A DNA stretch of 31,054 nucleotides from a virus, in IMG/VR virus record IMGVR_UViG_2820651690_000008, positions 1 through 31,054 of that record; one strand, 5' to 3'. How positions within the stretch are numbered: the stretch's first letter is position 1; every line of letters begins with the position of its first letter. Below the pieces are notes generated by a model. It did no database searches. It was not told the DNA's origin and saw only the letters and a list, made by a program, of their open reading frames with translations. This document shows, piece after piece, positions 5,586 through 6,248 of this stretch. The translations under genes and the position numbers were made by a program.

Positions 5586-6248
5586 ATGTTGGAAAAAGAT
5601 TTAACAGCTGAAACAAAGAAAATAAAAGATTATCTAAGTAAAGTTGAATGTTGTCAACGATGCGGTTCTGGGAATGCAGGTATCATTACTGATTGGATGA
5701 GAGTCCCGAATAAAACATTTTTGATTGGAATATATCAAATTAAATGTTTAACATGTAACACTAAAAGCCCATTTTCCGATAATTTGCACTTAGCCATAGA
5801 TTCATGGAATCAATTATGGAGCGAATGCAATTATTGGGAAATAAATTATTATGGGTTTAATCCAGAAAAACAAGTACAAACGATAAATAAAGATGAACGA
5901 GTATTTGACAAAGATTTAAAACAAAAAGTTACGGACATTTTAGATGATTTAGAAATCAATCCTAAATTGCAGGGTTATCACTTCTTGCGAGAAGCAATAA
6001 TTTTGATAGTTCAGGATGTGCAGTACTTGCAAAGGATTACAAAGGTTCTATATCCAACAATTGCAAAGAATTATAATAGTACTGGCAGTAGGGTTGAAAG
6101 ATCAATAAGACATGCGATTGAGCTGGCTTATAATAATGGCAAATTAGGTAATAAAAATAAGCCTACAAACGGTGATTTTATGGCCTCTGTTGCTGAAAAA
6201 TTAAGAATGAATAATAGATTTGATTATACGAAAAAGGAGATGGTATAA
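5586..6248 (+). CDS. Lar-like zinc ribbon fused to a Spo0A C-terminal DNA-binding domain, with no receiver domain
   Basis: C-terminus [32 protein letters not shown]...[16 protein letters not shown] closely matches Spo0A-C ([32 protein letters not shown]...KPTNSEFIAMVADKLR); N-terminus CxxCG...CxxC...AIDSWN matches the Lar zinc ribbon; alternative upstream starts at 5550 and 5556. Confidence 0.7.
   Translation: [220 protein letters not shown]

Follow-up and report, generated by a model that had tools for sequence, protein, structure and literature searches.

The window analysed here is a stretch of viral DNA of 31,054 nucleotides (IMG/VR record IMGVR_UViG_2820651690_000008, positions 1 to 31,054), and it carries on its plus strand a gene, hereafter the Spo0A_C gene, whose product joins an N-terminal module with four cysteines to the effector (DNA-binding) domain found at the C-terminus of the sporulation regulator Spo0A. 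The open reading frame (ORF) ends with its stop codon at 6248 and has three candidate start codons, TTG at 5550, ATG at 5556 and ATG at 5586. Starting at ATG 5556, as in the public record, gives a protein of 230 amino acids (aa), while ATG 5586, the start used in an earlier annotation of this DNA (the original prediction), gives one of 220 aa. The peptides quoted in the original prediction are all present in the ORF translation. A 100% identical protein is found in an NCBI metagenome-assembled genome (MAG) record, here called P0001 (locus tag FWC41_00085), and the identical protein also occurs on three contigs from two European Nucleotide Archive (ENA) assemblies. Because the same protein is present on these three contigs and in the NCBI record, it is unlikely that an assembly error lies behind the deletion described below. 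The features of the gene are as follows.

5556..6248, plus strand: coding sequence of the zinc-ribbon-like/Spo0A_C fusion, 230 or 220 aa (ORF and identical public protein P0001)
5646..5813, plus strand: N-terminal four-cysteine module, P0001 residues 31-86 (PF14354 and TIGR03655, below cut-off; BLASTP against RalR)
5814..5888, plus strand: aromatic-rich linker without a family match (low-confidence model, with a predicted local distance difference test score, pLDDT, of 52-67 over the first 20 residues of the C-domain model)
5889..6218, plus strand: Spo0A_C domain (PF08769, PDB entries 1fc3 and 1lq1, AlphaFold model, Foldseek)
6084..6134, plus strand: recognition helix, P0001 residues 177-193 (alignment to B. 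subtilis, and model)
6135..6167, plus strand: 11-residue loop where canonical Spo0A has about 23 residues, marking the 12-residue deletion (alignments and model)

A Spo0A effector domain without a receiver

The C-terminal part of the protein, about 110 aa, is clearly a Spo0A effector domain with the Spo0A-C fold, and our confidence in this is far above that in the mechanism as a whole. The Pfam family Spo0A_C (PF08769) matched over its full length, model positions 1-104 of 104, with 93.8 bits against a cut-off of 25 (E=7.4e-27), and the sequence matched the Spo0A-C crystal chains 1fc3 of G. stearothermophilus (E=7e-25) and 1lq1 of B. subtilis (E=6e-24). An AlphaFold model of the C-domain, built from 35 sequences, had a mean pLDDT of 87.8. 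When this model was compared by Foldseek to 1fc3 and 1lq1, the probability was 1.0, the root-mean-square deviation 1.0-2.5 Å and the target-normalised TM-score 0.81-0.94, and the next-best fold in the PDB was found only at E>1.

The residues that read DNA are kept. Over S210-E221 (B. subtilis numbering; SRVERxIRHAIE) the recognition helix is identical to that of B. subtilis Spo0A save for A215S, a variant that is found in receiver-bearing Spo0A proteins too. The KPTN motif and the other conserved columns of the Spo0A family are also retained, including the VER..R core of the recognition helix, as are the residues of the last helix equivalent to B. subtilis A257 and L260, while D258 is changed to E. 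The receiver domain is gone: there is no match to PF00072 and no BLASTP match to the B. subtilis receiver, and the NCBIfam Spo0A equivalog TIGR02875 scored 113 bits against its 200-bit cut-off, with model positions 141-260 alone matched. The original prediction had described a 0A-box-binding domain of Spo0A, nearly residue for residue alike through its helix-turn-helix and lacking a receiver; the Spo0A_C identity and the loss of the receiver are borne out by the family, structure and receiver searches.

Even the best matches of the C-domain, whether from cells or from viruses, share 46-48% identity with it. From this divergence the phage Spo0A_C lineage is judged to be old and diverged, with a long independent evolution in phages, and not a recent host capture.

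A 12-residue deletion after the recognition helix

Alignments made with HMMER and with MAFFT agree that 12 residues are absent between the recognition helix and NKNKPTN. Between the conserved R (B. subtilis R217) and the KPTN proline (P247) the spacing is 18 in the phage protein, as against 30 in canonical Spo0A. The gap corresponds approximately to B. subtilis S231-M242, its exact placement being ambiguous by a few residues. The B. subtilis numbering was checked over residues 151-265 against the 1lq1 alignment.

The structure model agrees with the alignments. In it the recognition helix (P0001 residues 177-193) runs into an 11-residue loop that leads directly to the last helix (205-229), and the helix that intervenes in canonical Spo0A is absent; the loop follows from the deletion of 12 residues between these two helices. 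The motif LFGYT[IV], which belongs to a conserved segment carried by all receiver-bearing Spo0A proteins compared, is missing from the phage protein. The original prediction was thus right that residues are missing at this place, but from the spacing of 18 against 30 their number is 12 and not about 10.

Mutations with a defect specific to activation at sigma-A promoters reportedly map to about residues 227-240 of B. subtilis Spo0A, in and around helix alpha-E, and the missing segment is the one that we take to be the sigma-A-contacting helix alpha-E region. The original prediction had made the same equation; that the gap falls between the recognition and final helices stands, but its identification with residues 227-240 and with the sigma-A contact is an assumption. 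In C. pasteurianum, sporulation was abolished by an in-frame deletion of 8 aa from the part of Spo0A that the authors, following Lewis et al., term the "sigma-A activator region" (PMC4690370).

Receiver-less Spo0A proteins in phages

Spo0A_C relatives are common in viruses. Our scan of IMG/VR found 302 viral stretches encoding one, and PHROGs holds two receiver-less Spo0A families, whose function is given there as unknown. Phage spo0A genes cut down to the effector domain, 29 of them in virome sequences, have been described and proposed to act without host phosphorylation signals (Schwartz et al., mBio 2023, PMC10294663). The notion of a phosphorelay-independent phage mimic, put forward in the original prediction, had thus already been published, and genes of this kind are common.

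We compared the segment after the recognition helix across 76 proteins, 33 bearing a receiver and 43 distinct ones lacking it. Among the receiver-bearing proteins the spacing from R217 to P247 is 30 in all but one (32/33), which has 29. The segment is shorter by 5-12 residues in 9 of the 43 receiver-less proteins and in none of the 33 that bear a receiver (Fisher p=0.004, computed on related sequences uncorrected for kinship), and the shortened receiver-less proteins lack the LFGYT[IV] motif. The protein described here is the extreme case, with the largest shortening among the 76, while the full segment is kept in 34 of the 43 receiver-less phage homologues.

At their N-termini the other receiver-less proteins have short coiled-coil-like helices or a different cysteine-rich module. 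A second cysteine-rich N-terminal module, unrelated to the one in our protein (for example LALCPGSPEESEICSLCPYRDDPNGCVKRMKARC), is found on other viral contigs (L008, L009, L014) and in protein P0014, in each case on a Spo0A_C domain with the full-length segment. Most versions with a shortened segment (L041, L024, P0015, P0017, P0020) have coiled-coil-like N-termini.

The N-terminal four-cysteine module

The module at the N-terminus has the arrangement C33-x2-C36 ... C64-x2-C67, followed by 12 residues and then AIDSWN. A search seeded with RalR, the Lar-type protein of E. coli, yielded mostly close enterobacterial relatives (at least 73% identity) and was too narrow, so we used two curated hidden Markov models together with pairwise alignment. 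Both models gave scores short of their cut-offs: PF14354 (Lar) 15.1 bits against 28.6 (E=0.029), and TIGR03655 22.7 bits against 39.6 (E=9e-5). In a BLASTP comparison to E. coli RalR the second half of the module aligned without gaps over 31 aa with a pairwise E of 1e-5, the RalR counterpart reading CNGC-x12-ALERWN. Between the two CxxC knuckles there are about 10 extra residues relative to Lar and RalR, forming a longer hairpin.

An exhaustive phmmer search with residues 1-115 against 1.84 billion representative proteins returned the protein itself only, and tblastn of the four-cysteine module against 50,697 phage records at E<=10 returned nothing. The original prediction had called this part a Lar-type zinc ribbon. 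The four cysteines with Lar-like motifs are there, but both curated cut-offs were missed, and "Lar-like zinc ribbon" is a reasonable label for a remote resemblance, not for family membership, from which no function can be transferred.

Promoter region and downstream gene

The region upstream of the Spo0A_C gene and the gene that follows it contain these features.

5476..5498, plus strand: intrinsic-terminator-like hairpin AGAGCC-GCAA-GGCTCT (5476-5491) followed by a T run, the only such site in 4400-9400
5503..5509, minus strand: perfect 0A box TGTCGAA, 8 nt upstream of the -35 hexamer (motif scan)
5518..5545, plus strand: sigma-A/sigma-70 promoter-like site TTGCAA-16 nt-TAGAAT with TG before the -10 hexamer (9/12 consensus matches)
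6250..8805, plus strand: major-vault-protein-like (MVP-like) gene, 851 aa (PF11978 and Vault_3 domains)

The terminator-like hairpin closes the upstream block of genes just before the promoter-like site of the Spo0A_C gene. This promoter-like site is a match to consensus, in a scan whose site count was about the same as in shuffled sequence. Counting 0A boxes in the phage window, we found three perfect ones (TGTCGAA) against 2.64 expected; two of these lie inside ORFs, 2526-3029 and 3093-3371, and the box at 5503-5509 is the only intergenic one. An upstream 0A box as a general feature of receiver-less viral spo0A genes was considered and rejected, only the full-length viral spo0A genes L006 and L013, which served as positive control, carrying perfect boxes within 200 nt upstream among the homologues examined.

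The ATG of the MVP-like gene lies 1 nt past the stop codon of the Spo0A_C gene. Because of this 1-nt gap, and because there is no terminator-like site between the two genes, they are probably co-transcribed, with the Spo0A_C gene first in the operon.

The MVP-like protein matched the shoulder domain PF11978 (E=1e-22) and a Vault_3 repeat (E=4e-9) and has no PHROG match. Its homologues, about 800 aa long, number more than 4,900, and the contigs that carry them measure tens to hundreds of kb; viral MVPs in gut phages have already been described (bioRxiv 10.1101/2023.11.10.566534). Conserved synteny between Spo0A_C and MVP-like genes was considered and rejected, as the closest MVP homologues (61-66% identity) have unrelated genes upstream. 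On a related contig, L085, about 2 kb containing two small genes separates the MVP-like gene from an upstream gene for a DUF2828/DUF7788 protein (2527-4053), and another contig with an MVP gene has three radical-SAM genes upstream and gyrase-like genes downstream. With neighbours that differ in this way, the MVP-like gene occurs in variable contexts.

Phage context

The window is part of a contig of about 89 kb that was binned into a "Firmicutes bacterium" MAG. The GC content is about 30% and all genes are on one strand. Genes for a large terminase, SPP1-type portal, scaffold, HK97-type major capsid protein and holin are present, together with genes for a DnaB-type helicase, a DnaD-like initiator, a ParB-methyltransferase, an ERCC4 nuclease, a T5orf172/GIY-YIG protein and a Tad2-like protein. 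This gene content marks the contig as phage DNA, best explained as a tailed phage of a low-GC Firmicute. No near-identical phage genome was found by megablast in the 50,697 phage records, and no tRNA genes were found in the window.

The module order is unusual in that the large terminase (13036-14346) lies about 8 kb from the portal, scaffold and capsid genes (22766-26056), with small ORFs and the DnaD-like replication gene (18055-18915) between them; the gene for a ParB-N/N6-N4 methyltransferase fusion (11342-12538) is 5' of the terminase. Two genes downstream of the MVP-like gene, the plus-strand gene at 9600-10076 encodes 158 aa, of which the first approximately 66 residues match the Tad2-like (Thoeris anti-defence 2) family PF11195 (E=4e-8), making it a probable anti-defence gene. 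At 27362-29584, plus strand, is a gene for a protein of 740 aa in which multiple Kelch repeats were recognised (PF13964, E=3e-21). One of its PHROG matches is phrog_16120 (virion structural protein), and it is possibly a tail fibre or receptor-binding protein.

The plus-strand gene at 1352-1570 encodes a 72-aa protein with an AbrB/MazE/SpoVT-type motif (HLGRIVLFKEMRDAMDL). It matched PHROG 4681 "antitoxin" (E=4.9e-10), and its Pfam score for PF04014 was 14.6 bits against a cut-off of 24.7. The suggestion in the original prediction that this is a second transition-state regulator homologue, of the AbrB/SpoVT family, is overstated: the fold class is plausible, but the matches point to a generic small protein of the AbrB/MazE/SpoVT type and do not single out an AbrB-type regulator.

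Proposed mechanism and alternatives

We propose that the phage makes a stand-alone Spo0A effector domain that would be constitutively competent to bind DNA. The isolated DNA-binding domain of Spo0A binds its legitimate targets without phosphorylation (PMC3485338), and with the inhibitory, phosphorylation-gated receiver gone the phage protein would bind 0A boxes (TGNCGAA) irrespective of how active the host kinases or phosphorelay are. The zinc-ribbon-like module may take over the receiver's other job, by pairing two DNA-binding domains, or may provide extra contacts to DNA or protein; the varied N-termini of the receiver-less proteins fit the idea that something must replace the dimerising role of the receiver. 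With the reported sigma-A-contacting segment gone, its action at 0A boxes would be repression or competition, not activation. At the sigma-A-dependent stage II promoters its rival would be phosphorylated host Spo0A (Spo0A~P), and promoters of the abrB type may still be repressed. The net effect during infection would be a host kept out of, or uncoupled from, the sporulation programme. The perfect 0A box beside the gene's own promoter-like site suggests autoregulation, or control of the phage operon by host Spo0A~P.

We rate the overall picture at about an even chance of being correct. Within it, a phosphorylation-independent occupier of 0A boxes unable to activate sigma-A promoters is plausible, and our confidence in the role of non-activating competitor is lower than in the picture as a whole. 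More tentatively, and with somewhat greater doubt than belief, we suggest that a subset of phages may have evolved activation-dead Spo0A mimics, through repeated loss of the sigma-A segment and a substitute N-terminal module (a coiled coil, a cysteine-rich module or, in this case, the Lar-like zinc ribbon), that would impose a dominant-negative block on sporulation whatever the phosphorelay signals, that our protein would be their most extreme member, and that the 0A box at the gene's own promoter may add wiring to host Spo0A~P or to the protein itself.

Several observations weigh against this reading. The fusion has no comparative support, since the N-terminal module is without a second protein among the 1.84 billion representatives, and the single-sequence AlphaFold model of the whole protein has a pLDDT of 38 and is unusable for this module. 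That the missing segment is the sigma-A contact is an assumption, and the deletion might also disturb the KPTN loop and weaken DNA binding. Since 34 of the 43 receiver-less homologues keep the full segment, loss of activation is no general need of the phage strategy. The relaxed motif TGNCGAA occurs 19 times in the window against 12 expected, a count reached by 4 of 100 shuffles, so 0A boxes are not clearly enriched. A perfect 0A box is present within 200 nt upstream of no other receiver-less viral homologue examined; because of this the significance of the box found here is uncertain and it may be there by chance. Finally, the searchable literature yielded no experimental work on the protein described here, nor on any homologue of Spo0A-C from a phage.

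The alternative that survives best, which we nevertheless think unlikely, is a transcription factor internal to the phage: a co-opted Spo0A-type domain that would regulate phage genes, for example its own operon with the vault-like gene, with little or no effect on host sporulation, and in which the missing segment would be a Spo0A-type sigma-A contact that was never needed. The window's one intergenic perfect 0A box does adjoin the promoter-like site of this gene, lying 8 nt upstream, the gene is first in a probable operon, and the identity of 46-48% to the best matches speaks for long independent evolution in phages. However, this is a single convincing site in 31 kb, in a window where 0A-like boxes show no clear enrichment, and other receiver-less homologues examined lack upstream boxes. 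The recognition helix is moreover kept nearly residue for residue like that of cellular Spo0A, and this conservation is most easily explained by selection to read host-type 0A boxes.

A constitutive activator is less probable still. Such a protein would resemble the "always on" Spo0A of sad67 and would drive the host towards sporulation or the transition state, for example trapping the phage genome in spores, with activation passing through other surfaces, for instance that of the C-terminal helix, or through the N-terminal module it has gained. Removal of the receiver is known to relieve inhibition of the effector domain (PMC3485338; proposal in PMC10294663), the last helix keeps the equivalents of A257 and L260 (D258 being changed to E), and most phage homologues retain the full segment. 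In this protein, however, the whole segment has gone together with the LFGYT[IV] motif, and the 8-aa deletion in the region that its authors regard as the sigma-A activator left C. pasteurianum asporogenous (PMC4690370).

That the gene is a decaying or neutral remnant of a captured spo0A fragment, its deletion being damage and its N-terminus an accidental fusion, is very improbable. The architecture is indeed a singleton, the N-terminal module has no homologue and the deletion is the largest seen in the family. Against this, independent assemblies show an unbroken reading frame, none of the conserved Spo0A_C columns has been lost, and the fold prediction is a confident one. The gene is preceded by a promoter-like site of its own and lies close against the gene that follows, the second half of the four-cysteine motif is spaced as in Lar/RalR, and independent receiver-less lineages shorten the same segment. 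A pseudogene or assembly artefact was likewise judged unlikely from the identical intact ORF on independent assemblies and the retained columns.

Implications

Sporulation is a refuge from phage infection, and interference by phages with the decision to sporulate matters in gut and soil microbiology. Phage spo0A fragments have been catalogued, and a naturally occurring version in which the DNA-reading helix is retained but the segment linked to sigma-A activation is lost offers a clean experimental handle on the direction in which such proteins push the host. The shortening of the segment in about a fifth of the receiver-less proteins, and in none of the receiver-bearing ones, suggests that part of the phage family may occupy sites and not activate. 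A protein of this kind could also find use in switching off Spo0A regulons, as a compact tool that needs no phosphorylation.

Comparison with known systems

Spo0A and phage DNA are known to meet in phi29, where host Spo0A binds 0A boxes on the phage genome; phi29 is not known to encode a Spo0A-like protein. An in-frame Spo0A deletion is also found in C. pasteurianum M150B, which is asporogenous, in a region that we take to be the one missing here. M150B, however, is a laboratory strain mutated in a host gene that is full-length and includes the receiver, whereas the deletion described here is natural, removes 12 aa, and lies in a receiver-less protein that would act in trans to host Spo0A. With cellular Spo0A (B. 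subtilis P06534; 1fc3, 1lq1) the phage protein shares the fold, a near-identical recognition helix, KPTN and 45-52% identity over the domain; it differs in being encoded by a phage, in lacking the receiver and in lacking the segment at approximately S231-M242.

A phage product that touches Spo0A is likewise known from the skin prophage, whose YqaH interacts with Spo0A and impairs sporulation (bioRxiv 10.1101/2020.11.18.388090). In contrast to the protein described here, YqaH is a small peptide that binds both DnaA and Spo0A, affects sporulation mainly via DnaA and is no DNA-binding mimic. The Lar/RalR proteins (PF14354, TIGR03655; RalR of the E. coli Rac prophage) are, like the N-terminal module, small and phage-borne, and the CxxC-x12-A[IL]xxWN spacing of the second half is identical. 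The module differs from them in scoring below the family cut-offs, in its insertion of about 10 residues and in being a domain of a fusion where Lar/RalR are free-standing proteins of about 60 aa; RalR is annotated as a DNase toxin.

The closest known system is the phage spo0A of Schwartz et al. (PMC10294663), which is, as here, a phage-encoded effector domain without a receiver. The present protein adds to this a Lar-like four-cysteine N-terminus and a 12-residue deletion, neither of which is mentioned in the passages of that work available to us. What is new, judged from the proteins compared, is the predicted singleton fusion of a zinc-ribbon-like module to Spo0A_C, together with a segment shortening that is confined, among the 76 proteins, to those without a receiver.

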